Numbered from the stretch's first letter, positions 31,823 to 61,016 are shown. The stretch: DNA of 64,000 bases from an uncultured Nitrososphaeraceae archaeon (GCA_963779615.1 CAVZZA010000001.1:256001-320000), one strand, 5' to 3'. Numbers and translations are program-made. The notes: generated by a model not told the origin, from the sequence alone.

Positions 31823-31901
31823 CTGTAATATAACATGAGTAGGCTTTATATGTAATATATATTGTCTAAATGAAATATATAGTAACATATAGAGGTATAT
31901 A

Positions 31902-32810
31902 TCATGTAGTAGATTTCAATTGGAAACCCCTTTTTTGAGATATCATTCTCAAAATTATACTCATCGACAATACAAGCAATATAAGAAGCAGGGCTGCGCC
32001 CCAGCCCTGTTCGTGTGCCGATGAATATGGTTGGGACGCAAGCCTCCATATTCTCAAGGGCAACGCATCAACTGGCGAATTAAAACTGCTAAAGAACAAA
32101 CTGGTTCCTAAAATAGTCATGATTAATGGGGCAGTTTCACCAGCAATTCTAGATATTCCTAAAACAATACCAGTAATTATACCACTTTTAGAGCCTTTTA
32201 CAACTATATGCCAAACAACCTTCCATTTGGAAATACCAAGGGCATAGGCAGCCTCCCTTAAAGAATTTGGAATTAGCTTCAATGTCTCCTCAGAAACCCT
32301 AGCAACTATCGGTATCATTATTATAGATAAAACAAAGGCTCCCGCACTGACTGAAAATGAGCCTAATGTTAAAACTATGGTGATGTACCCAACTATTCCT
32401 ATAACAACAGAAGGAATGCCTGTCATTACATCATTGAATAGCCTAAGAAAATATGCAAATCGTTTGCTATGGGAAGAGTATTCTGAGAGATAAATACCTA
32501 CAAGAACTCCAATAGGCGCTCCAATTAGTGTGGCAAACCCGACAATCATAAGAGTTCCCTGAATTGCAGGTCCAATTCCTCCGCCAGCTGAACCCATTGC
32601 ACCAGGAGGGAGAATCAGAAAATCTAGATTAAATGCACCAATTCCATTTCTAAATACATCTATTAAAATACTAACAAGTGGTATTATTGCAATGACTACA
32701 AAAATAAACAATACAGCGGTAATCAAATTATTAATGATTTTTCTCTTTCTTGCATTTTTAACAACATATCCTTGAACTATAGATTTATAATCGATATTTT
32801 CTTTATCCAT
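31902..32810 (-). CDS. pstA: Phosphate ABC transporter permease
   Basis: [25 protein letters not shown]. Confidence 0.95.
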
Positions 32811-32811
32811 G

Positions 32812-33808
32812 TTATTCCCTCATATTAGAGTTAGACTTTGTTACCTTTGAAACTATATAAATTGCAATTACATTGATTAAAAGAGTCAGTATAAATAATA
32901 CTAGTCCAAGGCCTATTAAGGCTGACAGCTGATAATTACCCGAGGCTTCATTGAATTCATTTGCAATAATACTTGACAAGGTTTGACCTGGGGAAAATAA
33001 GGAAGTTGGAATTGCAGATAAACCTACTGCATTACCAATAATCATAGTCACTAGAATTGTTTCGCCAATGGCTCTGCCCAATCCCAAAAATGATGCGCCC
33101 AGTAAACCAGATTTCCCATAAGGAAGAATAGCCGTTTTAACCATCTCCCAGCGAGTTGCGCCAAGCGCATATGCAGCTTCTTTTTGCGAATGAGGGACCG
33201 CTTTGATAACTTCTCGCGAAACAGCAGATATAATGGGAATAATCATTATTGCAAGAACTATGCCTGCAGTGAATACATCAAGTCCGAACGGAGTTCTGGC
33301 GAAAATTGATAAATTATCGCCAAATGTGTTATGGAGAGGCATTTCAATATAGTCTCTCAGATAAAATCGAAATACAAATAATGCCCATAGTCCATATACA
33401 ATACTTGGAACTGCGGCAAGTAATTCAACGACAAAAGATAGAACAGTGACCAATTTTCCTTGTTACCATTTCATTAACAAAAATTGCGATTCCTATACTG
33501 ATTGGAACTGCAATAGCCATCGCAATGACAGAGCTAACCAGTGTTCCCACAATATAAGGCAGTGCACCAAATGATTCTCGACCCTCTACAGCATTCCAAT
33601 CAGTTCCAATAATAAAATTTATGCCTTCTTTAAATAAAATTGGGAGGGAACCTTCAGTTAATGCGTAAAAAACAAGAAAAACCATAAACAAAGCATAAAT
33701 TGAAGCTCCAATTACTAGTGCTTTAAAAAATTTATCTCCAGATTTGGATCCGTTTGATTTTGACCGGATTGTCTGAACAACCTTTACCTTATGATCCTTT
33801 AAACTCAA
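32812..33808 (-). pseudogene. pstC: PstC permease split by a +1 frameshift (real or sequencing error)
   Basis: N-part 33425-33808 (FGALPYIVGTL) and C-part 32812-33453 (ELLAAVPSIVYG, GRAIGET); deleting one base of the T4 run at 33454-57 gives ...RKLVTVLSFVVE. Confidence 0.88.
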
Positions 33809-33890
33809 TGTTAACTTTACATAAATACATATTATTAATATAAATTGCCTATATGATGTATATAGAATAACTGAACTATTTAGAAAAAAA

Positions 33891-34989
33891 TTATTTGGTG
33901 GAAATTGGATTTCCTTTAAAGGTTAAAGAATTCAATGTTTGGTTATTTAGTTCAACTACAGAACTAGGTAGCGGAACATATCCCAGTGGTGCTGAAAACT
34001 TTTGACCATCGGTTATAGCCCATGATATGAAATCAACAATAGCTGTTGCCTTTTGCTGATTTATAGTCGGATTTGCGCTTAATTCTTTATACAAGATGAG
34101 GTATGTGAGACTTGAGATAGGGTAAGAATCATGGCCTGGCGCGTTTGTGATTGTTACATTAGTCCACGAATCAGAGCCTTTTGGGAAAGTAGTGGCAGTT
34201 GCATCAACTGCAGCTATAGTGGAATTTATAGTCGGTAGAACAAAATTGCCATCTTTATTTTGAATAGTAGCATAGTTCATTTTTGAAGTTAAAGCATATG
34301 CAAGTTCTACATAACCAATAGAAAATTCTGAGCCTTTAATTGAAGCCGATACTCCCTCGTTACCTGGGGCACCTATGCCGTTTGGCCATGGTACTGATTT
34401 TGAAGTTCCCATCTTTTCAGACCATTCGGGGCTTACTTTAGATAGATAATCTGTAAACACAAATGTTGTACCAGAACCGTCAGAGCGATGAACTGTGTTT
34501 ATAGATTGTGAAGGCAAAGTAAGAGTTGGGTTTAACGCTTTAATTTTAGGATCATCCCATTTAGCGATTTTTCCTAAAAATATATCTGCAATTACAGGGC
34601 CTGATAATTTAAGGGAATTATCAGGAACTCCAGGCAAATTATATGATAGCACAACAGATCCAATGGTTTCTGGAATATGGACAGGGTTCACTGCTTTAGC
34701 AAATTCTGATTTGCTCAGAGGAGCATCTGTTGCCCCAAAATCAACAGTTTTTTCTAAAAATTGTTTAATTCCGCCTCCACTGCCAATAGATGCATAATTA
34801 ATATTTACATCAGGATTAACTTTTTTTGTACTCTACTCTCCATGTGTCTATTAAAGGAAATGGAAAAGTAGCTCCTGCACCATTAAGTGTTACTTGTTGT
34901 GCATTGACTGAATTAATCACAAGGGGCATTAACAACGCCGCCGTTAACAATGCCACACCGATCTTTTTAAAATTAGATATATTTGTCAT
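33891..34989 (-). pseudogene. pstS: PstS phosphate-binding protein split by a +1 frameshift in an A7 run
   Basis: ATG 34989: signal peptide + LNGAGATFPFP...EYKK; run at 34821-27; with A6 it continues VNPDVNINYASIGSGGGIKQF...RSDGSGTT. Confidence 0.9.
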
Positions 34990-35601
34990 TAAAAGTATTA
35001 TATTATTTACTTATAAATCAATTATCTATATGATTACCATAAACTATATGCATCTAGTTAATTAAACACCAACACTTAAAGAATAATAGATTAAATGCAT
35101 ATTGTTTATCTACCTTAAATCTTAATTTTTGTCGATACAAAATTTACGTCTACGGTAGGGCATAATTTGGATAAATAACAAATGACATTAAAATTTAAAT
35201 ACCATTATAAAAAAATCACAAATCAATGTCATAACTATAACGTTATTTTAAAGGCCTATCATATACAAATCATTATCTAATGCACCCATGAATGCCTTGT
35301 CATAACACACTTCAACATTTTCTATTTAAACTGTCTCATTATTATTTGCTATCCTGGTAACACAATTGATCTCTTGTTAATACATAAGATGTATCAATAA
35401 GGGCAAGTTGAATTGGACTGCCTTGGATTTTAAAAAAGCAAATATGGTTATTGAGGTCTTTTTATTTATATACATATATTTATTCCCCTCCTCATTGTTA
35501 TGTTCATGGAAAATCCACCATCTAGCAGTGAATTTAGTAAGGCTCCTGCTAATATAATGAAAAACTGATGAGGGTTAATTGGTTTTATGGTCTATTTCAT
35601 T

Positions 35602-37041
35602 TTATGTGTTTGGTATTTTCATCAATAGTAACTGACCCCCTTCGTTTAAAGTGTGTGCCTGAACATCTAACATCCAGGTCCCTTCACCAAAAAACTCTGA
35701 AGCATCGAAAATACCGCTTGACTCCCATTCACCATGGTCTGCATTTTGATCTTCGTATTGATTAACATAGCCTATAGTTTTAAATTCATTGGTTTTTAAA
35801 TCCAGATTAATTATTTTCGCATTATTTATAACGTTGTAAGGACTTGTGGGTTTGTAACGATTATAATCATTATGATCTTCTTGAATCATTATGCTGTTTA
35901 AACTTGTATCAACATTATCCGGGTTTATCATCATGTCATGGCCAGGGGCTCGGGGGTCATCCCCATCTGCGAAAACTTTAATCGTCGCCTTGGTTGGGTC
36001 AATAGGGTCATTAAATGTAAATTGATATATTCTGCCATTTGTGAAGTTTTGTCCATTGACTGACGAAGGCGAAATTTTTTGATCATCTTCGTCCACATCA
36101 CTACCAGTTTCTACCATGTAAACGATATTGTTAAACCCATTTCGTTTGTCTGTTGCTCCATCTTCAGGTCGAATAAATTGAAATCCACCCTTATCTATTG
36201 CTTCATTATCCAATTCAGTTTCATTTTGAGTCATGTAATTCCATTCAAGAGGAATAAATTTTCCATTGACTGTTCCGTTACCGTAGTACAGGTTATTCCA
36301 TGATGATTGAGTATTGGATGTAGAGTTGTTTTCTATACCAAATACGTATAGGTTTCCTTTACCATTTAATAAATCATTAGGTGAATTTGCCATATACATA
36401 TAAAGTTCAGATTCCGTGGGATCACCATCTTCGAATGCAAGCATTACTGTTTTGTTTGCAGTGGAGAAATATGGGATATGGATAGTGTTTTCATGAGAAA
36501 ACTTTCCTAACCAGGGTAATTCTTTTACGGTGTTGTTTGTTGCATCTATTGATACAACAAGACCATCATTTGTTTCCTCGTTGGTAAAATACATTGGGTG
36601 AATAAAACCATAACCCTTTGCTAAATAACTAGAACAAAGAGCTTCATATCTTTCTGAGCCATTAATAACCAATCCTGCATCAATTATTGACGGGTTAGAT
36701 TGGTTTAGTGTGAGTTTTGAAACCTTTGCAAACCCATCTTGTCCTGTTTCGTTTTCAAGCTCATGATTAACAAATAAATCCATTTTTCCTTTTTCAGTTT
36801 GGAATGCACCTATACCATCTGGATTTTGAGGAAAATTGAACCCAGTAGTGAGATTATCGTTTGTGGTAATTAATGCATTTATTGTACTATTATATGGAAC
36901 ACTTGATGCCAATGTTACATAGTTTTTTTTTGAAGTTTTAAAAGAGTCGCTATATGCATTTTCGTAAGCAAATAAATTGCATGGAATTAACAACAACGAA
37001 ACTGTTGTTACCACCATCATAATACCGTTAATTAGGTTCAT
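35602..37041 (-). CDS. Secreted PhoX/DUF839-like alkaline phosphatase
   Basis: Signal peptide; PDG, VNHE, LGKFSHEN, RPED, NPDN, IQED, ESSG, DVQAH. Confidence 0.8.
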   Translation of the reverse strand: MNLINGIMMVVTTVSLLLIPCNLFAYENAYSDSFKTSKKNYVTLASSVPYNSTINALITTNDNLTTGFNFPQNPDGIGAFQTEKGKMDLFVNHELENETGQDGFAKVSKLTLNQSNPSIIDAGLVINGSERYEALCSSYLAKGYGFIHPMYFTNEETNDGLVVSIDATNNTVKELPWLGKFSHENTIHIPYFSTANKTVMLAFEDGDPTESELYMYMANSPNDLLNGKGNLYVFGIENNSTSNTQSSWNNLYYGNGTVNGKFIPLEWNYMTQNETELDNEAIDKGGFQFIRPEDGATDKRNGFNNIVYMVETGSDVDEDDQKISPSSVNGQNFTNGRIYQFTFNDPIDPTKATIKVFADGDDPRAPGHDMMINPDNVDTSLNSIMIQEDHNDYNRYKPTSPYNVINNAKIINLDLKTNEFKTIGYVNQYEDQNADHGEWESSGIFDASEFFGEGTWMLDVQAHTLNEGGQLLLMKIPNT

Positions 37042-37143
37042 CTAATTATAATAAATTTGATCAGATTTTATTCTTTATCATCATATATTTAGTGCATCTA
37101 TAATCTACTATGTTATCTATATGCACATCTTTTTTATCCATGT

Positions 37144-37290: not shown

Positions 37291-37309
37291 CCAAGCAGGG
37301 ATAATCAGG

Positions 37310-40476: not shown

Positions 40477-42240
40477 TTACCCTGGACTCTTAAATGCAGC
40501 CTTGGGAAAGCCAATCTTTATTGGATGCCTAAAAGATGAGTGAATCATGACCAATTCCCCCCTGTTTAACCTGACGATGTTGTTTTTTGTGCTTTCATCC
40601 AGGTTTGAATATGGCTCTGTGGATAACTCAGATATTCCTAATTTCCCTGTTATGTGTAATCCAGTATTTTCCTGTAACTTGTAGTCGGTAGCGCTTTTGA
40701 ACTGCTGCGCAGAAAACAGAATTGTCCCTCTGGATCTTCCCGCAATTATGGTTCTCATGATCTGATCTGAAACTGCACTTTTTCCAAAAGGGGATTTGGG
40801 TATGTATCTGTTAATCTCGTCAATAAACACAAAAATATATGGAGGCTTTTCTTTGTTTTTGATCCTGTCGCCTGTATCGCCATTTGCGCTGTCATTAGGG
40901 GAATCAAACGGGCTTGAAGAGTACAATTCATCGATGCTTTTCATCACATCCCCGACAACAAACGCTTGTTCCTCCACAGAAGATATTGTCGCCACATCTA
41001 TCACAAAGACCTGGCCTGATTTGATTTTCCTTATTTCCCCGCCAAGGTAAGTGCTTGTCACTTTTTTGTCAATGAACATTGGGGACCTCCTCATTCTTTG
41101 TAGTTGACCTAAAAAGTGCAACAGGGAGGATTTGTGTGAGACTATCGATTCGGGATATCCACTAAATTCATACAAGTCAGTCCATGTTCTTATCTCCTTT
41201 CCAGTGTTTTCCCTTAGTGGCCAGGATTCATAGATGTAATCTATGATTGATGAGAGGTTAAAACGGGTGTCATATGCCTCATAGAATAGCAATTCAAGCC
41301 TATCGTAAACATCCTGCAACTCATAGGAGTATGTTTTGAAATTTTTTGGTATGTGCATAGAATTGGGCCTGCCATCTTTGCCTCTTGGCAAAAAATAAAC
41401 TACATTCTCAAAAGGCTCCAACTCCAAATCAAGGATGTTAAATAAATCTTCTGTTCTCTCCTTGATGTCTGTTGGTTTTTGGTCTATGTGTAGCAGATCC
41501 TGTTCCTTGGTGTTGAAAATGACCAGTGCTATGTTCTCCTTCTTCTTTTCAAAAAGTGTTTGATAAGCCGATTGCAATAGAAACAAAATGTAATTGCTTT
41601 TCCTATTTCCTGAAATCCCTGAAGCATTTACGTGTGCTGTATCGGGACCAGCCAAATAAGTCAATGCTAATGAAATGGGAACCTGCAAGCCATTTGTTGT
41701 TTCTATAACCCCTGCAGGAATCGGGTCTACCATTTCTGGAATTCCTAGAGCGAAAATAATCTCATCTTCTGTGGCAAATCTAACGGGTTTGCCTATGCCT
41801 ACTGGAAAGTTTATAGAAATAGCCTCCTTACGGCCTTCCACTTTTGCCCCAGTGTTTGCCATTATCCCCACTTTTGCCAATACCGACCCTTTTGGGGAAT
41901 CGCTGCATAATATTTGTTCTTGTTTTTCTGGGTCCTTTTGGCAATCCGTAACATAATCAGCATAAACATTTTCTGCAACTGCCTGCAACTCCTTTACAAT
42001 CCCGATTGTTTTGCTGTTGTGCAAATTGTCAACTGTAACAAAATCAAAAGAGTTTACCATTGTGTTGGGCTTAACGGCAAACCAGAAGCCATCCATGTTG
42101 TTGAGGAATCTTTTTGATGCTATGGTTTTTCCAACATCCTCAGGTGAGCTTGAATCCGTCGAAATCTTTTCGTCATTCAGATTTGCTGGTGTTGACCTGA
42201 TTAAATGAGCAACCTCATCTTTCTGGTACTTTAAACTCAT
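40477..42240 (-). CDS. HerA-family ATPase with atypical P-loop
   Basis: HAS-barrel-like N-terminus; HVNASGISGNRKS, VIFNTK, FIDEINRY, GRSRG..LFSAQQF. Confidence 0.78.
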   Translation of the reverse strand: MSLKYQKDEVAHLIRSTPANLNDEKISTDSSSPEDVGKTIASKRFLNNMDGFWFAVKPNTMVNSFDFVTVDNLHNSKTIGIVKELQAVAENVYADYVTDCQKDPEKQEQILCSDSPKGSVLAKVGIMANTGAKVEGRKEAISINFPVGIGKPVRFATEDEIIFALGIPEMVDPIPAGVIETTNGLQVPISLALTYLAGPDTAHVNASGISGNRKSNYILFLLQSAYQTLFEKKKENIALVIFNTKEQDLLHIDQKPTDIKERTEDLFNILDLELEPFENVVYFLPRGKDGRPNSMHIPKNFKTYSYELQDVYDRLELLFYEAYDTRFNLSSIIDYIYESWPLRENTGKEIRTWTDLYEFSGYPESIVSHKSSLLHFLGQLQRMRRSPMFIDKKVTSTYLGGEIRKIKSGQVFVIDVATISSVEEQAFVVGDVMKSIDELYSSSPFDSPNDSANGDTGDRIKNKEKPPYIFVFIDEINRYIPKSPFGKSAVSDQIMRTIIAGRSRGTILFSAQQFKSATDYKLQENTGLHITGKLGISELSTEPYSNLDESTKNNIVRLNRGELVMIHSSFRHPIKIGFPKAAFKSPG

Positions 42241-42269: not shown

Positions 42270-42309
42270 ATATAGATTACATATAGAAAGAATATAGAAT
42301 AAACATAAA
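42270..42309 (-). promoter_or_regulatory. 11-bp-periodic ATATAGA array (candidate Pho box) upstream of the HerA-like gene
   Basis: ATATAGA at 42270, 42281, 42292 and degenerate ACATAAA at 42303, abutting TATA-like 42263-70. Confidence 0.6.
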
Positions 42310-42318
42310 GTAAGTTAA

Positions 42319-42480
42319 CTATATAGGAGAAAAATATTGTGTGGAAACTGGTTTTCCGCTAAGGGCCAGGGAATTCAATGTATGTTTGTCTAGGTCTACC
42401 ACGGAGGAGGGTAATGGAACATATCCCAATGGTTTTGAATACTTTTGTCCATCGGTGATAGCCCAAGTTATAAAATCAAC
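42319..42480 (-). pseudogene. pstS: 3' remnant of a second pstS
   Basis: VDFITWAITDGQKYSKPLGYVPLPSSVVDLDKHTLNSL versus VDFISWAITDGQKFSAPLGYVPLPSSVVELNNQTLNSL in pstS at 33891. Confidence 0.88.
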
Positions 42481-42908
42481 ATCATTATCCACCGACATTT
42501 ACACTGCAATAATTATAATGGTGGCGTTAATCAAGATAATAACCTATTTGGCTTCAGAATATGTATCAAAAAGAACCACCTGTAACCAATTAGATGATTA
42601 AATGCCATATTCTTGTCGGCCAAAGTTGTCATGTCCATCATTACGAACTTCTCCTAACTTCTGTTGAAATGGCAATAATTATTCAGTTGGCAGTTAGCTT
42701 GACCGGCAAATGCAAGAAATACCGTAATGTGGATTGCAAACTTCGTGTTAACGTGGATGTTGACTTTGTAAAATATTGCCGGTAAGTGATTTTATGGTAA
42801 TGTAGTTGCGATGAGCTTCAACAATAACCTAGTCAAGTTCTTTTTTAGATGTTAAATAGAAGATGTCTTATAACATTTATTTAAATACAGTAAACCTAGT
42901 TTAGGTTT

Positions 42909-42978: not shown

Positions 42979-43683
42979 TTATAGACTATATTTTTTCCTA
43001 AATGTTGAGGCGATGATGGACGTTCCCATAAAGGTGGCGGTCCAATACAGCCATAGGTTTTCCACCATTCCCCCCGACAACAAAGCAGGGGCCAAGGACC
43101 TGGCAGGGTTCATTGATGCTCCGGATATAAATGCCAAAAAGAATATGTCCAAGCCAACGATTCCAGCAATAACAATACCGCCAAAACCTCTCAAGCCCTT
43201 TGTATATACCACCACCAAGATTACAGCCATCAATAAAGCAGAAGCCAATACCTCCACCCCAAATATCAAAGGCAAAGGATACGCATAGTTCGGTGAGTTG
43301 GCCCCCAGAAAAGCCTCATTCCCTATGGCATACTTTACAAACAAGCTTGCCAATAGCGCCCCTATTATCTCTGCAGATATGTAAAGCAGCAACTGCCTTT
43401 TTGTTATGTGCTTTGTAATCAGGAAACCCAAGGTCACGGCAGGGTTAAAATGCGCCATGGAGATTTTGCCAAACAGGTATACGCCTATCGCTACTCCAAC
43501 AAATGGCGCAAATGCAATAAAGGGAATTCCCAATACCCCGTTCATTTTGGCGTCAATAACTACAGAGCCAGTGGCCAATACCACGACAATAAAAGTTCCA
43601 ATTACCTCAGCAATAAACTTCTTTTGGCTTGAGGACAGGTTATCCCTCAATGTTGTGACCAGGCTATTTGTTGCGTTTTTCAC
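42979..43683 (-). CDS. MIP/aquaporin family channel (probable arsenite channel)
   Basis: HFNPAVT and SMNPARS NPA motifs; downstream of arsC. Confidence 0.9.
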   Translation of the reverse strand: MKNATNSLVTTLRDNLSSSQKKFIAEVIGTFIVVVLATGSVVIDAKMNGVLGIPFIAFAPFVGVAIGVYLFGKISMAHFNPAVTLGFLITKHITKRQLLLYISAEIIGALLASLFVKYAIGNEAFLGANSPNYAYPLPLIFGVEVLASALLMAVILVVVYTKGLRGFGGIVIAGIVGLDIFFLAFISGASMNPARSLAPALLSGGMVENLWLYWTATFMGTSIIASTFRKKYSL

Positions 43684-43753
43684 CGTCTTCTCTTCTCTTC
43701 TGTTAGTTTACAACCTGATTTTCCATGACAACATATAAAATATTGTGTAAGCT

Positions 43754-44209
43754 TTAGTTTTCCTTCTCATCTTTGCCAATTTGTTCTACTGCTTCCTTTA
43801 TTCTCCTCTTGATTTCATCCCTTATCTCCCTTACCTTTTCTATGGGCTTGTCCTTAGGGTCCTCAATTCCCCAGTCCACAACTTTAGGGACAAATAAAGT
43901 AGGGCAGAAATCTTTATCCATGCATCCCATGTTGATTATTTTTGTTGCGTTTCTTATCATGTCTTCGGTAAGCTCCTTTGGTTTTTGGCTGCGGATATCT
44001 ATACCAATTTCTTTCATCACGTCTACAGCAACGGGATTGATTTGGGATTTATGGCGTGTCCCGGCGCTTATTGGTTCATAATCGTCGGTACCATACTTTC
44101 TAAAAAAGCCCTCTGCCATTTGGCTGCGCCCTGCATTCTCTACACACACAAAGAGTATCATCTTTTTTGTTTTGTTTTCAGCATATTTACTTTTGAATGA
44201 GAGCTTCAT
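43754..44209 (-). CDS. arsC: Arsenate reductase (LMW-PTP type)
   Basis: FVCVENAGRSQMAE, MGC..D.CP, WGIEDP. Confidence 0.9.
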   Translation of the reverse strand: MKLSFKSKYAENKTKKMILFVCVENAGRSQMAEGFFRKYGTDDYEPISAGTRHKSQINPVAVDVMKEIGIDIRSQKPKELTEDMIRNATKIINMGCMDKDFCPTLFVPKVVDWGIEDPKDKPIEKVREIRDEIKRRIKEAVEQIGKDEKEN

Positions 44210-44237
44210 TTTTCAATGCCATCTTGTTTTTTTATTG

Positions 44238-45026: not shown

Positions 45027-45030
45027 ACCT

Positions 45031-45049
45031 TAGTTTACATTAGAAACTA
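45031..45049. promoter_or_regulatory. Inverted repeat TAGTTT-N7-AAACTA, candidate operator
   Basis: Lies in the 55-bp divergent promoter between arsM and the HxlR regulator. Confidence 0.5.
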
Positions 45050-45081
45050 TTTAAGTTGGTAAGAGTAAAATAGTAAAGCAA

Positions 45082-47114: not shown

Positions 47115-48017
47115 TTAAACAAGTTTTTTAACCTCTGGAAGATCTCTACACATATTCACAAATTGCTTTTGCTTATTCTCCAAATCTTTGTTCAATTTAT
47201 TGGCAAGTTCTACTATATATTGTTCAGAGCCAGCTTTTTTCAGCAATTTCAAGGCATTGTTAGTATTATTTATATCCTGCAAGACTTGCTGAACTTTTTC
47301 CAAATCCTTTGCAACAGTTATGGCTTTATTACTTTGCTGATTAGGAACTTTGTTATCGCTTTGTTCCTTACTATTTGATAGAATATCTAAAGTAAGCTGT
47401 AATTTTTCCAACATCTTTAGGAATCTGTTAGTTTTTCTGAGGGCATTATTATCCAATGTGTTGTCTGAAACAATTATTCTAATTTTGTTTTCTAATTTTT
47501 TTGTTAAACGATCCAACCTCAGAATGAATTTCTTTGTTCTCTTTTGTATGGAGAAGCTACTGAATTTACTATCAAATGATGTTAATTGAAGAGAATTAAA
47601 ATCGAAAATAATTTTATTTGCTTTTGATAATAAACCTTGTTTTTCAACTTTAAGATAGTTTTCAAAATTTCTTTTATGAGTTTGTTCACTATCTGTAGTT
47701 TTATTCTTCATTATTTCTTTATCGATTATATCAAATGCTTTCAATTTTCGCTCTAGTTTATAGAGAGATATAGATATTTCTTCAATCTCTTTCAAGGTCT
47801 TTTGTTTTCTGATTTTCTTTGGAAAAACTATTTGGTTGGTTCCCAAATCTTTTAGTGTAGAGCTTATATCGGAAAAATCTTTATCGTTATTATTCTTCAA
47901 ATAGTTACTGGCCTTATTCTTTAATTCTATCACATTTTTTTCATAATTGTTTACATACCTTTTAATCACATTTTCTTCCAAGGCAACTATATTGCTGGTC
48001 ATAAATTTCTCTAACAA
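47115..48017 (-). CDS. Divergent CHAD-like helical protein
   Basis: Aligns by eye to the CHAD at 58777 (NYLKNNNDKDFSDI/EYIKDPNEENIHDI; PKKIRKQ/PKQIRKK; LEKVQQVLQDI/LEKIQDMLGNV). Confidence 0.65.
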   Translation of the reverse strand: MLEKFMTSNIVALEENVIKRYVNNYEKNVIELKNKASNYLKNNNDKDFSDISSTLKDLGTNQIVFPKKIRKQKTLKEIEEISISLYKLERKLKAFDIIDKEIMKNKTTDSEQTHKRNFENYLKVEKQGLLSKANKIIFDFNSLQLTSFDSKFSSFSIQKRTKKFILRLDRLTKKLENKIRIIVSDNTLDNNALRKTNRFLKMLEKLQLTLDILSNSKEQSDNKVPNQQSNKAITVAKDLEKVQQVLQDINNTNNALKLLKKAGSEQYIVELANKLNKDLENKQKQFVNMCRDLPEVKKLV

Positions 48018-48020
48018 CGG

Positions 48021-48065
48021 TTATATTTAGGTATATAGTCTATATTCATCTATATAGTCTATATC
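48021..48065. promoter_or_regulatory. About 10-bp periodic TATAT array (candidate Pho box) in the divergent CHAD/kinase promoter
   Basis: TATAT at 48022, 48032, 48041, 48051, 48060. Confidence 0.5.
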
Positions 48066-49003: not shown

Positions 49004-49645
49004 GTGATAGAGGGTCCCGATGCATCAGGAAGAAGCACACAGATTGAAAAAATAACAACAAAACTTGAGGCTGACGGGCATGCTGTTGTAAATGCAGGGT
49101 TGCGGAGATCGGATCTTGTTTCCAAAGGGATTATGGAGGCAAAAAGAAATTATTTGATAGGGAATAGGACAATGACCCTTTATTACGCGGCAGATTTTGC
49201 AGACCAGCTGGAAAAAAAAATCATTCCGGCGCTAAAGGCAGGTTTCATTGTGATTTCTGACAGATACATATACACACTGATAGCGAGAAGCTCTGTCAGG
49301 GGAATAGACAAAAACTGGCTGCACAGCTTATTTAGTTTTGCCATCAAACCGGATTTGGTTTTCCATTTGGATGTAGATCCGCATAACTTGATACACAGGG
49401 TGTTTCAGAAAAACTACTCCCTGGACTATTATGAGTCGGGGGTTGATCTTGGGATTTCCAGCGACATTTTTGACTCATTCATAAAATACCAGTATGCACT
49501 GAAAAGGGAGTTTGAAAGGATGAGGGCAAGGTATAACCTGATTAACATAGACGGCAATGAAAGCATTGAGAAGGTGTACCAGCAAATCCAATCACAGATA
49601 GACGACTTTTTAATATCGGAAAACAAGGAAACGGTAATAAGGTGA
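49004..49645 (+). CDS. Thymidylate-kinase-like protein B with altered P-loop (putative PPK3 partner); frame open from 48899
   Basis: IEGPDASGRST, YAADFADQLE, SDRYIYT, YYESGVD. Confidence 0.78.
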   Translation: MIEGPDASGRSTQIEKITTKLEADGHAVVNAGLRRSDLVSKGIMEAKRNYLIGNRTMTLYYAADFADQLEKKIIPALKAGFIVISDRYIYTLIARSSVRGIDKNWLHSLFSFAIKPDLVFHLDVDPHNLIHRVFQKNYSLDYYESGVDLGISSDIFDSFIKYQYALKREFERMRARYNLINIDGNESIEKVYQQIQSQIDDFLISENKETVIR

Positions 49646-50555: not shown

Positions 50556-51590
50556 TAGATCTCGCATAATTAGCATAAACAGATTTATGACCATCAGATC
50601 ATTAATTCATGTCCTTTCCTTGCTCTCATATGACAGGTTGTCCAAAAACCCATTGCTTTTCAAGTCATCCACCGGCTGACGGTAAAGGAGTTTGATGACA
50701 TTATGATATGAAGATGTTAAAAAGACAAGGCAAGCATGAGATCAGGCGATTATCCAAAAGAAATGATAGTAGAAAACGATCCATGGGTGCTGGGCGACAT
50801 TTCAAGATGGATGTTAAAAACAGGCTCCTGGTGCTTTTGGGCTACTATTGCCGCCTTTACACAACCTACCCGTTGGCCGGCTTTTTGTTTGACTTGGACC
50901 AGAGTAACGTCTGCAGGGATATTCAAAAGATTGAGTCGCGGGTAAGAAAATGCCTGCCAATTCCGCAAAAGACGCACAGATTGTCAAAAAGGATGCTCAC
51001 ACCAGAAGGGGTTGAAAAAATGTTTCCAGGCTTTCTGTCCTTCATAGACCGCACAGAACAGCAGATACCAATGCCTCACAAAAAAAGAAGAAAGGCGTAT
51101 TATTCAGGCAAGAAGAAAAGGCATACCGTAAATACACAGCTCATGGTTAACAATCAGGGTATCATCATTCACAAAACAGGCCACAAGAAAGGAAAAAGGT
51201 ATGACTACAACATATATAAAAATAATCACCCTGTGATTCTAATGCAAGTTGTCAGCGTGTTTGACCGTGGTTATCGAGGTTGAGAGAGACTTTCCTGACC
51301 AAAAGTCATCCTTGCCAAACAGAAAGATGAGAAACCAAGAGTTGACTCAAGAGGAAAATAAGTACAACCAGAACCACTCTAAAAAAAAGATGGTGATAAA
51401 GTATACCATTTGCAAGATGAAAAAGGACAGGATAATGGGCTACATCTTTAGAAACAGTCTCAAAAAGTATGACAAGATATCAGACATAGTTTCAGGACTG
51501 GTAAACTACAGAGCATTGTCATCTTTTTAGATAGGCATCAGTCTTGCCGTACTGATGGGACATACTGTTTCTGATTATGCAAAAGATCTA
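50556..51590 (+). mobile_element. IS5-family (ISL2/DDE_Tnp_4-like) element with decayed transposase
   Basis: Imperfect IRs TAGATCTCGCATAATTAG / CTGATTATGCAAAAGATCTA; GAGRHFK, FDLDQSNVCR, YSGKKKRHT, DRGY. Confidence 0.85.
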
Positions 51591-51785: not shown

Positions 51786-52054
51786 CAGTAGAGTAGATTA
51801 AGTAAACACATTACACACTTTATTTACGATAGAAAAAGATATCGAGTTGTTGAACGTATATTTACCATTTAGAGACATGTAGTCTATATAGATAACACTT
51901 TTTATTTGATATTTACTCTTACTATGTATGTATTGTAAAATATATGATAAAAATCAAGAATTGACTTATAATCAACATAACAATCATCGTATTAAACACA
52001 AGGCAGTAAAAAGAGAAATTAACCAAAAAAAAGTGGAGGCGCTATAATACAGTA

Positions 52055-52654: not shown

Positions 52655-53314
52655 GGCTCTTCGTTTAAGCATCTGCAACTCTGCTACAAATATCTATGAA
52701 AAGATTTAACCAATTAATCACGTGCTTTGGTTTGCATTTCTTCTTTTTACATGGAAAGTCACCAAAGCATTCAGTTCTGTTTCTGACGAACTGCATAGTT
52801 TTTCCAATGAAACTTCTTTCATATAAAGAATGGATATGATATTCTATTTTTGGAAACTTACAGGCTTGAGGATACCATGTCCACCATCTGTTGTTGAGAG
52901 TGGATGTTTGTCATATATTTTGAATAAACTTGGGATAAGTTTTGATGTAACAAACGTGTTTCTCTCCTTTGATAATTTAAATCCTAGAATTCTTTAATTC
53001 AATGGCTCGGTAATAACCCAAAGCTAAATTAATTTAGAACCAACTTTAATAACAGTTTCATCTATTACAATTCCGAAATTAACTTTCTGTATGATGAAAT
53101 TTTCTTTGAATTGTATATTTGAATCTAATTCCATATTGAAACATGATAACATTTAATAAAATGAGATAACCTTCGGATGTTTTTTCAACGCTAATCCAGA
53201 AAAATACAAATCCAAACCACAACTGACATACTCTAAAGGCACTCTATTTTTCTTACGACTCACAAACGAGACGGAACATCTTCAGATATAGCATCTTATT
53301 AAATGACCAGAGCC
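52655..53314 (-). mobile_element. Highly decayed IS6-family element
   Basis: Ends GGCTCT / CAGAGCC; STTDGGHG.PQAC, DRTECFGDFPC remnants. Confidence 0.78.
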
Positions 53315-53400
53315 TCATATTTTTATTAAATGTATATGAACTATATAAAAACAATGGACTTTCCTTATAAGAATGATATCCTGTAAAAAAGTAGGGGATT

Positions 53401-53787
53401 ATGATCCATAATAACAGTATAAAAGTTATTATTATTGAAGATGAACCAGACCTTTTGATTCTTTATAGAGAGTTTTTACTAATGAAAGGATATTTTATAA
53501 TTTTTACTGATATCAAAGCTACAAATATTTTAAATGAATATAAAAAACATAAACCAGATATCATCATTCTTGACCATAATTTACATGGAGAAAGGAATGG
53601 TATTGAGGCATCTAAAGATGTTTTAAAAAAGTTCCCCGATGCATCAATATTGATGATTAGTGCATCGAGTTCTATCACACAAACTTTTCATAGTGAAGAG
53701 GTATTCAAAGATAAAAGAATAAAGCTATTGATTAAGCCAATAAAACTACAGATAATAGAAAATTATATAAAACTACTTTTAAAATGA
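53401..53787 (+). CDS. Stand-alone response regulator receiver protein
   Basis: IEDEP, PDIIILDHNL (phosphoacceptor D), ISA, KP. Confidence 0.9.
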   Translation: MIHNNSIKVIIIEDEPDLLILYREFLLMKGYFIIFTDIKATNILNEYKKHKPDIIILDHNLHGERNGIEASKDVLKKFPDASILMISASSSITQTFHSEEVFKDKRIKLLIKPIKLQIIENYIKLLLK

Positions 53788-55186: not shown

Positions 55187-55378
55187 TTACCAATAAATAC
55201 CTTTTTCTGAATCTGTTAGTTCTGAGCCACATTTAAAACATTTAAGATGGCAAACAGTATATTCCCCCATAATAAAACCACATTTAATACATTCAATTTT
55301 TTGTTTTGAATTACCTTCTTTGGACTCATCCAACTTAATATAATGAATCAATAAATTGGGCACAATCACTATTTTCAT
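55187..55378 (-). CDS. Small Zn-ribbon protein
   Basis: CIKCG...CHLKCFKCGSELTDSEKGIYW. Confidence 0.6.
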   Translation of the reverse strand: MKIVIVPNLLIHYIKLDESKEGNSKQKIECIKCGFIMGEYTVCHLKCFKCGSELTDSEKGIYW

Positions 55379-55816
55379 TACCTTATAAACAGCAAAGTAA
55401 ACTTTAAACGTTATCTATATACAATACTAATTCTATATAGATAACTATGGCAACACTTAAAACAGATAATTCACATTATTCATTCCTAAATCAAGAACTT
55501 TATACAGTAGTCACAGTTGTAAATATGGCAAATGATTGTAATAATATCGAATTGATAAAATCAACAAATTTATAAATATTTACTATTAAGGATAACATTT
55601 ATAAATCGATGTATAAATTAGTAAACAACTAAATAAAATTGTCAAGTAAATTGTTAGATAACAAAAAACAGAACATTGTTAAAATTTTGAAGATATATTT
55701 AACTGTATAACAATACAACAATCTTTTTAATTTTATTTATAGTATATTATACTATATAAACATAATAGTCATATTTTGTATAGACTATATGGATAATTTT
55801 TATATTTTAATATAGT

Positions 55817-56280
55817 ATGATTTATAATAGAGTGCGTGCCATAAGTATCGCAATCGATGTAGATGGTTCTCCATCAGGTTACATTTCTTGGCATAATCAT
55901 TTTTTTAATAAAAGTAAAATTAGAGTATTAAAACCATCAAAAAAAAATGAAAAGTTTGGGGTTCAGAGAATGGAAATGCTTGCAGTTTATTTTGCTATTT
56001 TAGACAATTTGAAAGGATTTAGAAAAATTAAAAGAACAAAAAAAAAGAATCATTATTGTTAGAAGTGACTCAAAGTCTACAATAGAACAATTAAATAAAA
56101 AAATAGGGATAAAAGACAGCATCATGAGGAGGATTTATAATTCCATAATACGGGTATTAGAAAAAGTTTCCTGCAATCTTATTTTTAATTATTTAAATAG
56201 AACAAAAAATTCGGCAGGAAAGTTATTAGAGCATCTTCGAAGGGAAAGTATATACATTCAAAAGAAAGGTCAACAGACTA
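55817..56280 (+). pseudogene. RNase H-like protein, +1 frameshift in an A9 run, 3' end abutting the IS
   Basis: DVDGS, MEMLAV; after removing one A at 56038-46: IIVRSDSKSTIEQL...RTKNSAG. Confidence 0.65.
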
Positions 56281-57215
56281 AGAGCCTATCCCAAAAACCG
56301 ATATAATTATGCTTGTTATCGTTTTCATTTACGAGTGGCATCGGTCTATCATAAGAACAAGAATAAACAGACATTAACAAATATTCCAGATGAACATGGG
56401 ATGAAATTGTTTCAGTTTTACCAAGGAAAAACCCGATAATGCGATTGGTCGTCCAATTGTTCCCTACAGAAAAGTAGTGGACGGTATTCTATACATCCTA
56501 AGAACAGGGTGCCAGTGGAAGATGCTGCCTGCAGAGTATGGTTCAGGTTCAACATGTCATCGACGATTTCAGGGGTGGGCGGGGTTAGACATTTTCAAAA
56601 AGGCATGGATCAGGTTGTTGCAATCATATGATAACAAACAAGGTATCAAGTGGACATGGCAATCGCTTGACAGCATATCCATAAAGTCTCCTTTAGGTGG
56701 GCAATGACCGAAGGAAGCAATCCCACTGACAGAGGCAAACTGGGCACAAAAAGGCATGTTTTAACGGATACAAAAGGAATCCCACTCTCAGTTGTCATAT
56801 CATCCGCAAGCACTCATGATACAAAACTAGTAACAGATGTAATGGATAATACAATTATCAAACGATCATCATCATCAAAGAAACGTAAATTATCCAGAAA
56901 AAGAAAACTGCAACACCTGTGTCTTGATAAGGCGTACAGTTCCAAGACAGTAAAACAGGAAATCATCAACCGAGGATATGTGCCGCATTTACCGTACAAG
57001 AGAAAAAGAGGAGAGGGCAAGACAGAAACACAAAAGATGTCAAATCGAAAAAAACATCCTGCCAGAAGATGGGTTGTGGAAAGAACCAACTCATGGCACA
57101 ACCGATTTAGAAAACTGCACACAAGATATGAGAGGAAAGCAGAGAACTATCTTGGGTTGGTACAGTTCTCATGTTGCATCATCATCTACAGAAAGATAGT
57201 TTTGGGATAGGCTCT
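56281..57215 (+). mobile_element. IS5-family (IS427-like) element, two-ORF transposase
   Basis: 16-bp IRs AGAGCCTATCCCAAAA, TA duplication; ORFs 56477-56707 and 56704-57210 (TGCQWKMLP; DKAY; RWVVERTNSW); 5' frameshifts. Confidence 0.93.
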
Positions 57216-57319
57216 TAATAATAAACTTCAATAAATAATTTACTTATTATTTCCTAATGGAATCAAATAATATATTATTAATTAGATTTCCATCGGTATA
57301 AATGGAAATTTATTCTATT

Positions 57320-58051: not shown

Positions 58052-58669
58052 GGCTCTGCTCACTTAATGATATCTAATTCCCTGTTATGAAAATATGCAA
58101 AAAGTTGTAGCCAATTATGAACATGTTTCAATTTACAACTCTTTCCTTGGCATGGAAAGTAATCATCGAACCTTCGGTTCTGTCCTTGATGCACTGCATT
58201 GTTCTCTGAGAATTTTTTTACGAGGCGAATGGATGTGATGCTGTAGTTTCAGGAATTTGCAAGCCTGCCGGTACCATATGTACCCCCATTTGTTGAAACA
58301 GGATGTTTTCCATAATTAGGGACCAGGTTTGAAATATGTCGTTCTGCTACAAACATGTTTCGCTCTTTGATATGCTTATTGCAAGAATTTTTTTGTTATT
58401 AGGCTCGATAGTAACCCATAACCATATGTACTTCGAACCAACCTTAATCAATGTCTCGTCTATAATAAATTCCAAAACTTTCTTTTTATTAGACGATATT
58501 CTTTGAGGACTATATTTTTGAATCCAGTTCCAAATAGAAACGTGAATCCTTTTAACCAAACTGGAAAGTCTTTCTGATGTCCTTCTTAGAGAGAGACCTA
58601 AAAAATACAAATACAAACCATGACATATGTACCTCTGAAGATGTAGGTTTATCGTAGGTGAACAGAGCC
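58052..58669 (-). mobile_element. IS6-family element with decayed transposase
   Basis: IRs GGCTCTGCTCAC / GTGAACAGAGCC; 8-bp TSD TTTTCCGA (58044-51, 58670-77); IDET...WLWVTIEP. Confidence 0.9.
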
Positions 58670-58776
58670 TTTTCCGAATAGAGAAAAAATAAAGATCACT
58701 AACTTATTATCATTTGTATACAATCAGCTTTTACTAGCCTCACAACAATAGACCATATTAAATAATCCTCATATCC

Positions 58777-59688
58777 TTATAAAAAATTGTTGTCGGCATC
58801 TAAAAGATCAGATTTACAATATTGGACGAACTCGTCATATTTGTTTTTTCTTATCATGGCAATATTATTTTCAGCGATAACGCTGTTATGTGTATTATGT
58901 CGTTTTAAACAGGCAGTTGTTATATCATAATCATGAACGTTTCCAAGCATATCCTGAATTTTTTCTAATTTATCTATCAGGCTAGAAACATTATGATTAT
59001 CTTCATGATCGTTCTTATCAACTACCTCATTTTCGTCAATACTTTCTTTATTCTTATCCTTATTGCTTAAAACAAGCTCCAGTAAATAACGCAATTTCTT
59101 GGCATCCTTTCTTATCTCATGTAACTCCTCAATTTTTTCGCTATTGTTGATTACAATGGGAAAGTTTTTCTCCATTCTGCAGACAAATTTACCAACAATT
59201 TTATTATATCTTTTAATTAATTTCTTTTGCACCGTACCACGTTCATATAGCTTATTATCGTTATTTATATGGGTAACATTTAACTTTCTTAGGCCAATGG
59301 CAACGGATAACGCCTTATCAAGTTTCCTATTTTTTTGTCTTTTAATTGATTTACTTAGTATTTCAAGCTGTTGTTCATCCATCTGCCCTTCCTTGTTTAA
59401 CTTTTCTAGAACAATATCAAAATCCCTGATTTCACTATTTAGTTTAAAAAGGCGTTTGCTATTAAATACATATTTTTTTATTCTTTTTTTCCGGATTTGC
59501 TTTGGGCTGGCGCTATACGATGCTTCTAGCCTTCTAAATGCTGTTCGTATATCGTGAATGTTTTCTTCATTAGGATCTTTAATGTACTCATTCAATCTCT
59601 TGCCTACCTTTTGGATATTATGGACATAGTTATCAAAAAAAGTATCTAAATTAATAGAATGCGGTATATCAAAAATTAACCTTGACAC
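58777..59688 (-). CDS. CHAD-domain polyphosphate-binding protein
   Basis: IHDIRTAFRRL, IRDFD, LHEIRKDAKKLRY, QDMLGNVHD. Confidence 0.92.
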   Translation of the reverse strand: MSRLIFDIPHSINLDTFFDNYVHNIQKVGKRLNEYIKDPNEENIHDIRTAFRRLEASYSASPKQIRKKRIKKYVFNSKRLFKLNSEIRDFDIVLEKLNKEGQMDEQQLEILSKSIKRQKNRKLDKALSVAIGLRKLNVTHINNDNKLYERGTVQKKLIKRYNKIVGKFVCRMEKNFPIVINNSEKIEELHEIRKDAKKLRYLLELVLSNKDKNKESIDENEVVDKNDHEDNHNVSSLIDKLEKIQDMLGNVHDYDITTACLKRHNTHNSVIAENNIAMIRKNKYDEFVQYCKSDLLDADNNFL

Positions 59689-59862
59689 AGATAAAACAAT
59701 ACACTTGAAATTATTTTAATATTTTACTACAAATAAAATAAAAAAACTCCCGGCATGTATTCAGTAGTACATATAAAAACATCGATTTGACACCAATTAG
59801 TTTGAATGGCATTATAATCCTATCAAAATATGACATTATTCAACATATACGACTATATTCTA

Positions 59863-60459
59863 TTACCCCTCCTTTGTCTTTATTTTCCTTAAAATGGAGT
59901 TTCTTACAAAGTCACTTGTCACAGATTTTGGTATGTTACAATATGATGAAATACATTCTGTTATTTTATTTGAGCATGTTATATTTTTACACAAAGATAG
60001 ATTTTCTTTAAAGGATTTGACTGGATCTTGGGATGAAAAAGCCCATGTCAGCATCATTCCTAGAACTTTTTCTTTTACATGTGGAGGCTTTTCTGATAGC
60101 AAAGCATTTAATTCATCCATTGAAGGAGCCAATTCTCCAATACCGTCATAATAAATGTCGTCATCACTTTTAGAATCAATGTCAGTGTTTTTCCTACATT
60201 TGGACTGAGAATTAAACATACCATTGTTGTTTAATTCCTTATCCCCGCTCTGAAGATCATTACTACCCTCTGTTTTCAGGTCACTGGAAGACGGCACAAG
60301 AGGTCCATGGGAATATACCAAATTGTTTGACTTATTGTATATCTCTCCTTGGTTATCATGTACATCTTTATTGTGGCGAAAAGCATTCCATTTCCTATCG
60401 AAAGTATTTCCACAACCAGAACAATAATATGGCGAGTTTTTCAAATATACCCTTTTCAC
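59863..60459 (-). CDS. Hypothetical protein with N-terminal C2H2 zinc finger
   Basis: YYCSGCGNTFDRKWNAFRHNKDVH. Confidence 0.72.
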   Translation of the reverse strand: MKRVYLKNSPYYCSGCGNTFDRKWNAFRHNKDVHDNQGEIYNKSNNLVYSHGPLVPSSSDLKTEGSNDLQSGDKELNNNGMFNSQSKCRKNTDIDSKSDDDIYYDGIGELAPSMDELNALLSEKPPHVKEKVLGMMLTWAFSSQDPVKSFKENLSLCKNITCSNKITECISSYCNIPKSVTSDFVRNSILRKIKTKEG

Positions 60460-61016
60460 ATATTTATGTAATCTTTAAATAGTCTCACTATATAATCTAT
60501 ATAATTGCATATAAACTATATAGATTGGACCTTAAGCATACATATATTGAGGTGTGTGAAGGCGTCTGGTCACAACTCGGGCCGTTGAATTATTGATTGA
60601 TGAGTGACTCGGAGTGACTCAACAGGGCAGTGAATTAATCATGGTTAACCATTCAACCATATAAACCGTATTAAAGGAGTGTGAAGGAGAAAAGCGGAAA
60701 AACAGCATGAGGCGTTTCAGCATAGCTATTCCTACCGTTTTATCCACAGTATCCGGCGTATGCAATAAAAACATGACAATAGGTAAATAGTATTACCAAC
60801 CTTTTGACGAACTGCCCAAACAAGAAGCGACGGCAAGAAAAATCGCTCTAATGGCTACCGATCATACAACCACCAGACAGTAGATAAATGAAGATTATCT
60901 ACATTATAATTTAAAATGTCAAGTATAGTTCACTTGAATAGGTGATGCTCTTACAATAGGAAGTTGAGGATACTTTCAACTTAGGTTATGTACAATTAAT
61001 CCAAGTTTCCACAACG

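Follow-up and report, generated by a model that had tools for sequence, protein, structure and literature searches.

A candidate palindromic Pho box and its putative AbrB-PhoU regulator in ammonia-oxidizing archaea

The pst operon and its promoter boxes

The 64,000-nt stretch of DNA examined here in its entirety (“the window”; GCA_963779615.1 CAVZZA010000001.1:256001-320000) comes from an uncultured Nitrososphaeraceae archaeon and carries the phosphate-transport operon pstSCAB-phoU among a set of neighbors that we refer to as the “island”. Short, regularly spaced CTATAT/ATATAG boxes stand in front of several of these genes. A preliminary description of the window, generated from the sequence alone, had read the boxes between 31870 and 60525 as a thaumarchaeal counterpart of the bacterial Pho box, controlled by one phosphate-starvation activator. 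Here, we describe the boxes, their conservation, the genes that they front, and a candidate for the protein that binds them, a fusion of an AbrB-type domain with a PhoU domain (“AbrB-PhoU”). The preliminary description named no regulator; AbrB-PhoU is proposed by the present analysis. We put the probability that the arrays are a thaumarchaeal Pho box, with AbrB-PhoU as the most likely binder, at roughly 0.6.

The window corresponds to positions 256001-320000 of contig C1 of genome G000 (3.17 Mb, five contigs, ~36% G+C). Archaeal amoA is present in G000, indicating an ammonia-oxidizing archaeon. Pfam searches of the window recovered phoU, pstB, pstA, pstC, pstS, an alpha/beta hydrolase, a CHAD protein, and transposase fragments; a MIP channel, a low-molecular-weight (LMW) phosphatase, a methyltransferase, and an adjoining HxlR-type regulator; and two thymidylate-kinase-family genes, a stand-alone receiver, and a protein with a weak C2H2 finger. 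Together with PDB, protein-atlas, and paralogue matches, these results agree broadly with the gene labels of the preliminary description. The operon and its boxes are arranged as follows (ORF, open reading frame).

30255..30908, minus strand: phoU, two PhoU domains and no DNA-binding domain (Pfam PhoU, E 4e-28)
30947..31822, minus strand: pstB, ABC ATPase (Pfam ABC_tran)
31877..31892, minus strand: boxes of the pstB promoter, a CTATAT pair (gene strand) spaced 10 bp, at about -70 to -55 from the likely start at 31822
31902..32810, minus strand: pstA (Pfam BPD_transp_1)
32812..33808, minus strand: pstC, split into two ORFs near 33448 (Pfam BPD_transp_1)
33849..33865, minus strand: internal pstC promoter boxes, CTATAT and CATATAG (gene strand), between pstS and pstC
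33891..34989, minus strand: pstS, phosphate-binding protein (Pfam PBP_like_2)
35026..35050, minus strand: pstS promoter boxes, two CATATAG (gene strand) with centers 18 bp apart, at about -61 to -55 and -43 to -37 from the ATG at 34989

The pstS boxes are followed by a TATA-like word, TTTATAA, at about -28. At the pstB promoter, the TATA-like word AATATATATTA lies in between; the likely pstB start is M23 of a long ORF, and tblastn alignments begin at residue 59–65 in several relatives. Across the genome, TATA-like words peak at -35 to -26 from start codons (2015 genes), meaning that most transcripts have little or no leader. On this scale, the positions at pstS, pstB, and the C2H2 gene described below bear out the earlier statement that the boxes lie directly upstream of TATA-like boxes.

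One surplus A, in an A-run near 34821–34834, disrupts the reading frame of pstS. RNA material was available as Logan contigs of soil metatranscriptomes, which come from close relatives and cover parts of pstSCAB-phoU. At 95–99% identity, these contigs have exactly one base fewer, in two runs at 34821 and in one run at 33448. Because they lack the extra bases, the pstS and pstC breaks are assembly indels or strain-specific lesions, not ancient pseudogenes. The apparent coding density in our own calls is low, at 65–71%, which may partly reflect more one-base assembly errors. A single in-frame TGA was seen in the pstS match of all five genomes of genus g18 (G041, G058, G070, G081, and G091), and in that of G057 from genus g34; recoding, a bridge in the alignment, or a conserved break could account for it.

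Anatomy, phasing, and enrichment of the box

All 16 strings to which the preliminary description had assigned positions are exactly present, as is the TATAT run at 48022–48060. Five further “weaker copies” fared unevenly: 51884 is a perfect CTATATAG, and 53341 and 55752 are CTATAT hexamers, but there are no instances at 49922 and 57805. Judging from the flanks and the strongest sites, the real unit is a palindrome of 8–10 bp, (T)CTATATAG(A), that is often half-degenerate and whose copies stand 9–11 or 17–20 bp apart. This replaces the 11-bp direct repeat proposed earlier: the palindromes are spaced at 9–10 or 18–19 bp, and 11 bp is found only in the array at 42270.

The spacing of the boxes follows the helical turn. 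Intergenic box centers are separated by 9–11 bp in 13 of 63 cases and by 17–20 bp in 10 of 63, with no such peaks in coding DNA (2/42 at 9–11 bp; 3/42 at 18–20 bp). When boxes are required to match at least 7 of 8 positions, spacings of 9, 10, or 17–19 bp account for 14 of the 22 intergenic pairs. The helical phasing suggested by the preliminary description is confirmed by these intergenic peaks.

CTATAT/ATATAG occurs 2255 times in G000 (0.71 per kb). The 28.6 kb originally singled out contain 57 copies, compared with a mean of 20.4 (standard deviation 6.7, maximum 55) over 1515 sliding windows; the top-scoring windows all overlap this region, which is the densest in the genome. Similarly, an unbiased k-mer comparison of 12.2 kb of island intergenic DNA with 1.02 Mb of other intergenic DNA returned ATATAG/CTATAT as the most enriched hexamer (37 versus 10.6 expected, p 2e-10); among 7-mers, CTATATA came first. 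Tight clusters (at least three hexamer hits with gaps of at most 25) number eight in the genome. Four are in the region, at 48033, 60488, 42270, and 55415; three of the remaining four are intergenic and one is in coding DNA. The full CTATATAG is not depleted in G000 relative to Markov expectation (43 observed, 35.6 expected).

Multiple boxes are likewise concentrated upstream of island genes. At least two boxes within 150 nt precede 8/31 called genes of the island and 32/2955 others (1.1%; Fisher 3e-9), and helically spaced pairs precede 6/31 and 9/2955, respectively. Six of the nine non-island genes with helical pairs were annotated, and none has a phosphate-related Pfam match; the other three are two C2H2 paralogues and a weak YbdK/GshA-like ligase gene on contig C4. 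Measured against intergenic background and against other genes, the motif is the top hexamer and multi-box promoters are enriched in the island.

Conservation of the boxes at phosphate genes

PstS was found in 20 of the 24 other genomes of the genus. In 17 aligned same-genus pstS promoters, box 1 (TATATAG) and the core of box 2, ATAT(AG) 18–20 bp on, are invariant, and AATT.ATT.ATA is kept, whereas the DNA farther upstream is unalignable. Since these genomes are kin and not independent of one another, it is this contrast between conserved boxes and diverged flanks that provides real evidence at the level of the genus. The pstS-pstC spacer has a constant layout in 17/17 same-genus relatives examined, taa-T run-CTATATAG-(10)-CTATAT-taaTTATATAT, the tail of which is also given as TTATATAT. 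All four relatives whose 20-kb loci were examined retain the pair at the pstA-pstB junction, as does G080. Conservation at pstS, pstC, and pstB means that the operon has three box-bearing promoters. The tie between motif and phosphate genes that the preliminary description had drawn is thus upheld at all three promoters within the genus, and at pstS beyond it.

Among 16 other genera of the same family, the 200 nt upstream of pstS contain at least one hexamer in 11 and at least two in 7, and several of these genera have one-mismatch variants at the same spacing (e.g., GTATAG twice, 19 bp apart). A tally of 52/61 from the same survey counts the unpublished genome G072, of which no other use was made. 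In six other families whose pstS upstream region could be read, the results vary: the 8-mer occurs twice upstream of pstS in G036, in tandem in G035, and once in G030; G037 has paired half-sites, G028 a single half-site, and G033 none.

Counting CTATATAG over whole genomes tests the tie to phosphate genes most cleanly. In G036 (1.62 Mb, another family), there are only six copies, four of them at phosphate-gene promoters: two before pstS, at 82 and 145 nt from the gene; one 21 nt before an AbrB-PhoU paralogue; and one at a DUF47/PhoU_div gene (Pfam E 4e-18), in its divergent promoter. The other two lie in an intergenic spacer 2 kb from pstS and in coding DNA. G035 has 20 copies, with two between pstS and AbrB-PhoU and one 27 nt before a second AbrB-PhoU gene; G039 has five, one of them 80 nt before AbrB-PhoU; and of the 13 in G030, two lie at the pst locus. 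In an unbiased count of 8-mers upstream of AbrB-PhoU and pstS across 16 families, TATATAGA ranked first (11/16), followed by CTATATAG (9/16). In a shuffle control, the best 8-mer reached a mean of 4.85 and a maximum of 7.

AbrB-PhoU, a candidate regulator

A fusion of a MazE/AbrB domain with PhoU is encoded in G036 by a 345-amino-acid gene that lies between pstC and pstS. The G000 copy of this gene lies outside the window, at C1:474742-475797. AbrB-PhoU consists of an N-terminal MazE_antitoxin domain (PF04014, E 3.5e-10) and a PhoU domain (PF01895, E 8.5e-21). Homologues are present in all 41 genomes searched, covering 17/17 families, and the gene adjoins pstS in G028, G033, G035, and G036.

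AbrB-PhoU is itself fronted by boxes. The full 8-mer lies within 200 nt upstream of the gene in 7 of the 15 other families with data (G026, G027, G032, G035, G036, G038, and G039), and half-sites are found in three more. Within the genus, CTATAT(AT) occupies the TATA position in 22/22 AbrB-PhoU loci examined. Boxes in front of a regulator's own gene are a classic mark of autoregulation. Because it combines boxes before its own gene with a PhoU domain and adjacency to pstS, we infer that AbrB-PhoU is the best candidate for the protein that binds the boxes.

Other genes fronted by the boxes

The conserved members of the putative regulon appear to be the three pst promoters, AbrB-PhoU, and a PhoX-like gene. 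Further genes and boxes of the island are listed below.

35602..37041, minus strand: secreted PhoX-like protein, 479 amino acids (a lead, not a family assignment)
37098..37122, minus strand: boxes of the PhoX-like gene, ATATAGA and a degenerate ATTATAGA 19 bp downstream (gene strand)
40477..42240, minus strand: HerA-like ATPase, 587 amino acids (PDB 7f6d_B HerA, E 1e-17)
42270..42326, minus strand: relic pstC promoter, CCTATATAG followed by three TCTATAT with a period of exactly 11 bp, the one nearest to HerA at about -36 to -30 from its start
42340..42483, minus strand: remnant of a second pstS, last 48 codons (73% identity to PstS residues 265–312)
47115..48017, minus strand: distant CHAD paralogue, 300 amino acids (BLASTP against the CHAD protein at 58777-59688, E 5e-8)
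48033..48064, no strand: densest array in the window, four box centers and five hexamer hits, between the divergent CHAD-like and first kinase genes
48181-48939 and 49004-49645, plus strand: two thymidylate-kinase-family genes (Pfam Thymidylate_kin; PDB 2plr_A, E 1e-60)
51884..51891, no strand: isolated perfect CTATATAG, 164 nt before an 83-amino-acid ORF
53286..53787, plus strand: stand-alone receiver, 128 amino acids (53401-53787; Pfam Response_reg only), with boxes at 53286 and 53341
55187..55440, minus strand: Zn-ribbon ORF, 63 amino acids (55187-55378), with CTATAT and CTATATAG 18 bp apart at about -62 to -37
55752..56062, plus strand: 81-amino-acid ORF (55817-56062; no family match) with three hexamers upstream
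59863..60523, minus strand: C2H2 zinc-finger protein, 198 amino acids (59863-60459), with boxes at 60488, 60497, and 60516, about -64 to -29
60602..60620, no strand: GAGTGACTCGGAGTGACTC, the C2H2-family hallmark, lying 143 nt upstream of the C2H2 gene; a motif distinct from CTATATAG

Synteny reveals a compact ancestral island of pstSCAB-phoU, a small ORF, two thymidylate-kinase (Tmk)-like genes, and CHAD, which insertions have stretched in G000. Transposase fragments lie inside the island at 50708-51283, 56704-57210, and 58347-58616, and the stretch at 52–56 kb has 27% G+C; both are consistent with growth of the island by insertions.

The 479-amino-acid protein has no Pfam, NCBIfam, or PDB sequence match, and hmmscan with PF05787 returned nothing even at E 10. 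In a feature search of a protein atlas built on a language model, 30/30 matches were to PhoX (PF05787) clusters with a score of 0.96, which serves as a lead only. All four orthologues have at least one ATATAG-type box upstream, and in G022 two perfect ATATAGA stand 19 bp apart.

The HerA ATPase had been drawn into the phosphate response on the strength of the array at 42270, which is instead a relic pstC promoter. The array lies directly downstream of the pstS remnant and has the layout of the genus pstS-pstC intergenic promoter, with box 2 triplicated. As a conserved member, HerA was rejected: the other 18 HerA-family loci examined (17 in relatives plus a second G000 copy) have no box pair, and one has a lone distal hexamer. 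The second copy (G000:C3:151959-153665) is 90% identical and lacks boxes, and the window copy differs at its N-terminus. The window copy abuts the pstS remnant, placing a rearrangement junction inside a former second pst operon. On this evidence, HerA is a recent duplicate that landed behind the relic pstC promoter of that decayed operon.

The CHAD-like and kinase genes flank the densest array. In G020, a homologue of the 300-amino-acid CHAD paralogue is divergent from a PhoX-like gene, with CTATATAG..CTATAT between them. In 4/4 relatives examined, one hexamer lies 79–159 nt before the tblastn alignment of kinase 1, which offers weak support for its membership. The CHAD gene at 58777-59688 was considered and set aside, having no boxes in G000 and no consistent site in relatives. 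The arsenic-type genes (MIP, LMW phosphatase, methyltransferase, and HxlR; 42979-45519) and the alpha/beta hydrolase were also rejected, with 0 boxes. An arsenate-reductase-like LMW phosphatase gene adjoins pst in G030, G035, and G037 (L111, L112, and L113; three other families), together with a MIP channel in G030.

The receiver, which the preliminary description had counted as a member, keeps its boxes in closer relatives only. Its five closest orthologues retain gatCTATATaaaaacaatgg at about -60; their flanks are conserved too. In G005, the gene order is C2H2, receiver, pstS. The 81-amino-acid ORF is 80–86% identical across the genus, compared with ~70% for PstS, and is the divergent neighbor of pstS in relatives. 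A single aaCTATAT box lies 34–44 nt before the ORF alignment in the three relatives that hold it, and at -32 to -27 from the start in G000.

Two arrays in relatives lie in other settings. In G012 and G015 (L206 ~1536–1561 and L207 ~1561–1586), a CTATAT pair 20 bp apart occurs between convergent genes in a highly conserved non-coding stretch, and may be part of an RNA gene; the pair is seemingly unrelated to phosphate. In G080, four ATATAGAAAT units form an exact 10-bp tandem within a 600-bp spacer (C1:870371-870406; L208 ~1571–1606), ~500 nt before a thioredoxin-like gene. Extension of the regulon by direct-pair hits was abandoned: apart from the pst locus, such hits resembled background or other conserved elements.

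A C2H2 zinc-finger family with its own element

In the 198-amino-acid protein of the window, C13, C16, H29, and H34 are invariant in three paralogues (C-x2-C-x12-H-x4-H), and the Pfam zf-C2H2 score is 17.1, against a cut-off of 25.2. The family comprises proteins of ~200 amino acids with an N-terminal finger and a C-terminal four-cysteine domain, encoded at about nine loci in G000. With a three-sequence profile, it was detected in 22/24 genomes of the genus and in 0/16 other families. We found no paper on C2H2 factors of ammonia oxidizers in the literature.

Two G000 paralogues (C2:23495-24112 and C3:984045-984689) also have top-ranked box clusters, as do orthologues in G005, G016, and G023. 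The C2H2 gene that the preliminary description had included is therefore backed by paralogues and orthologues, but only among closer relatives. G000 has its cleanest array, three CTATATAGT in tandem, before a C2H2 paralogue at C2:23427-23450, on a small contig of 29.8 kb.

A different element is far more regular in the family. A GAGTNACTC pair, i.e., palindromic units 9–12 bp apart, lies upstream in 30/35 C2H2-family loci. At least two CTATAT/ATATAG are found at 8/35 loci, seven of which have the GAGTNACTC pair as well. Five of the six exact GAGTNACTC pairs in G000 are at family genes (60602 in the window, C2:23292, C3:900264, C5:491647, and C5:749883). The family thus looks like an autoregulated family of zinc-finger transcription factors. 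On the simplest reading, GAGTNACTC would be the family's own operator and CTATATAG an added phosphate input, making the family probably a target, not a binder, of CTATATAG.

A model for phosphate control and its alternatives

Building on the observed motif, phasing, position, and conservation, the model set out here adds a binder, a phosphate signal, and a sign of regulation, which are deductions. The pairs of CTATATAG are very probably a switch for phosphate-gene control in these archaea, and the boxes would mark a phosphate-homeostasis regulon of ammonia-oxidizing archaea. The AbrB domain, as a dimer or a higher oligomer, is predicted to contact the boxes along one face of the helix, and the PhoU domains would couple DNA binding to phosphate status. 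At pstS, pstC, and pstB, where the boxes lie upstream of TATA (the proximal box adjoining it at pstS), binding may activate transcription by recruiting basal factors; the alternative sign would be repression by blocking the B recognition element (BRE). At the AbrB-PhoU gene itself, the box at the TATA position predicts autorepression. Boxes now also front the PhoX-like, CHAD-like, C2H2, and receiver genes and, through an accident of rearrangement, the HerA duplicate.

A more complete scheme can be drawn, which we hold tentatively and at somewhat less than even odds. AbrB-PhoU would act throughout the order as a one-component sensor-regulator that activates the three pst promoters and represses its own gene, with a second tier added in the soil genus. 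This second tier, to which we give similarly guarded credence, would consist of genus-specific, autoregulated C2H2 factors with the GAGTNACTC-pair operator, and of the stand-alone receiver.

Several observations weigh against a Pho box read by AbrB-PhoU. First, lone hexamers are common, being found upstream of 415/2986 genes (13.9%), so that single copies mean little; here, the caution of the preliminary description that TATAT is frequent in AT-rich DNA holds. Second, in three complete genus genomes, direct pairs outside the pst locus scarcely outnumber those of a reversed control: CTATAT-N3-14-CTATAT occurs 25, 25, and 28 times, compared with 20, 14, and 23. Third, in 5 of 15 families there is no box before the best AbrB-PhoU match, including G033, where the gene adjoins pstS. 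Fourth, the genus box before AbrB-PhoU may simply be the TATA box. Fifth, the DUF47 gene of G000 itself has no box. The materials also set bounds: gene calls and start codons in G000 come from our own crude ORF caller, making distances to start codons approximate; counts over same-genus relatives overstate the support at genus level; and the RNA-library contigs provide coverage only, without transcript starts, strand, or regulation, and uncovered stretches are uninformative.

The boxes could be a genuine phosphate-linked operator that is bound by another factor, with AbrB-PhoU only a target, or, in a variant, that answers to a general-stress signal. A box before AbrB-PhoU shows regulon membership, not binding, and two weak winged-helix proteins (28111-28734 and 28738-29289) are encoded next to phoU throughout the genus. 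However, in the pst loci examined from other families, where the box persists, the winged-helix genes yielded no match with an E value of 1e-5 or lower, and of the DNA-binding candidates seen, none but AbrB-PhoU is at once universal (41/41 genomes) and repeatedly adjacent to pstS. Moreover, the target genes are overwhelmingly phosphate genes. We therefore regard this explanation as unlikely.

Binding of CTATATAG by the local C2H2 subfamily (59863-60459 and its paralogues), with autoregulation, strikes us as improbable. It would account for three of the eight strongest G000 clusters lying directly before the three C2H2 paralogues, for CTATATAG standing ~6 nt before the TATA box of the C2H2 orthologues in G005, G016, and G023, and for the C2H2-family member 3 kb from pstS in G005. 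Yet the family was found in the genus only, and the box-bearing subfamily in few members, whereas the pst boxes are genus-wide and recur in other families; the GAGTNACTC pair, at 30/35 loci, is the likelier C2H2 self-operator.

More doubtful still is the proposal that a dedicated TBP or TFB paralogue reads a class of promoters in which the boxes serve as variant TATA/BRE elements, not as operator sites. CTATATAG does contain TATATA, some single box copies coincide with the TATA position, and the AbrB-PhoU, HerA, and C2H2 genes each have one copy there, at -36 to -21. By contrast, the pstS boxes lie at -61 to -37 and are followed by a separate conserved TATA-like word, boxes occur in phased pairs, and the G036 copies are 82 and 145 nt before pstS. 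A general archaeal TATA/BRE element would appear as one copy at about -26 to -30 before most genes, which is not how the boxes are distributed.

Finally, chance in AT-rich DNA or local duplication without function, to which the commonness of lone hexamers, the duplicated 42270 promoter with its internal 11-bp triplication, and the transposase fragments in the island lend some color, is very improbable. Nowhere else in the genome is box density as high, an unbiased comparison ranks the motif first among k-mers, footprints persist between unalignable flanks, and phased spacing is found in intergenic DNA only; recurrence in other families already contradicts this explanation.

Significance and relation to known systems

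Nitrification in soils and oceans, settings in which phosphate is often in short supply, is driven by ammonia-oxidizing archaea. We found no account in the literature of how they regulate phosphate uptake. Likewise, full-text searches, supplementary files aside, returned nothing on a thaumarchaeal Pho box or on CTATATAG as an archaeal operator. According to an excerpt of one study (PMC9239043), ocean populations differ in Pst and in a PhoU gene. If the Pho box read by AbrB-PhoU is real, ammonia-oxidizing archaea would have their first nutrient regulon in which both cis element and factor are defined. The box would then be a marker for predicting phosphate-responsive genes in uncultured lineages, and, with a defined box and a named candidate regulator in 41/41 genomes, the question is directly testable. 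The regulon would also illustrate how membership drifts: a relic pst promoter has captured a HerA duplicate, and a zinc-finger family specific to the lineage has been wired in.

The bacterial Pho box consists of 11-bp direct repeats bound by an OmpR-family response regulator, PhoB/PhoP, under the control of PhoR. The boxes described here are similar in that phased repeats precede pst, phosphatase, and related genes, following the logic of a phosphate regulon. They differ in being palindromes at 9–10 or 18–19 bp, set in archaeal TATA-type promoters. The only receiver in the island has no OmpR-type DNA-binding domain, no genome-wide search for OmpR-type regulators having been made. With both the type of repeat and the type of regulator failing to correspond, the box would not belong to the bacterial PhoB-box family.

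SpoVT/AbrB-fold domains, including those of AbrB, MazE, and archaeal Sso7c4, bind DNA as swapped dimers, as stated in an excerpt of PMC5222340. Unlike these proteins, the candidate regulator has its AbrB domain fused to PhoU and is predicted to read a defined palindrome. As far as the same excerpt goes, the CCTATATAGG oligonucleotide was generic crystallization DNA that did not co-crystallize, and offers no evidence for this motif (PMC5222340).

The closest precedent is found in haloarchaea, with their pho boxes and PhoU-type factors. Furtwangler et al. 2010 is reportedly, from a citing passage, the source study for the haloarchaeal pho boxes. In Halobacterium salinarum, short promoter boxes of the phosphate ABC-transporter operons pst1 and pst2 are needed for induction, according to an excerpt of PMC6560208. 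As in haloarchaea, boxes lie in pst promoters, and a PhoU-domain protein of DNA-binding type is encoded in every genome searched here (41/41). Unlike Halobacterium, the archaea studied here belong to a different phylum, three box-bearing promoters serve one pst operon, and a box precedes the regulator gene. The likeness lies in placement and in the type of protein, as read from DNA sequence. Taken together, the boxes are best read as extending archaeal Pho regulons with PhoU-type factors to a new phylum, here with a defined palindromic box.

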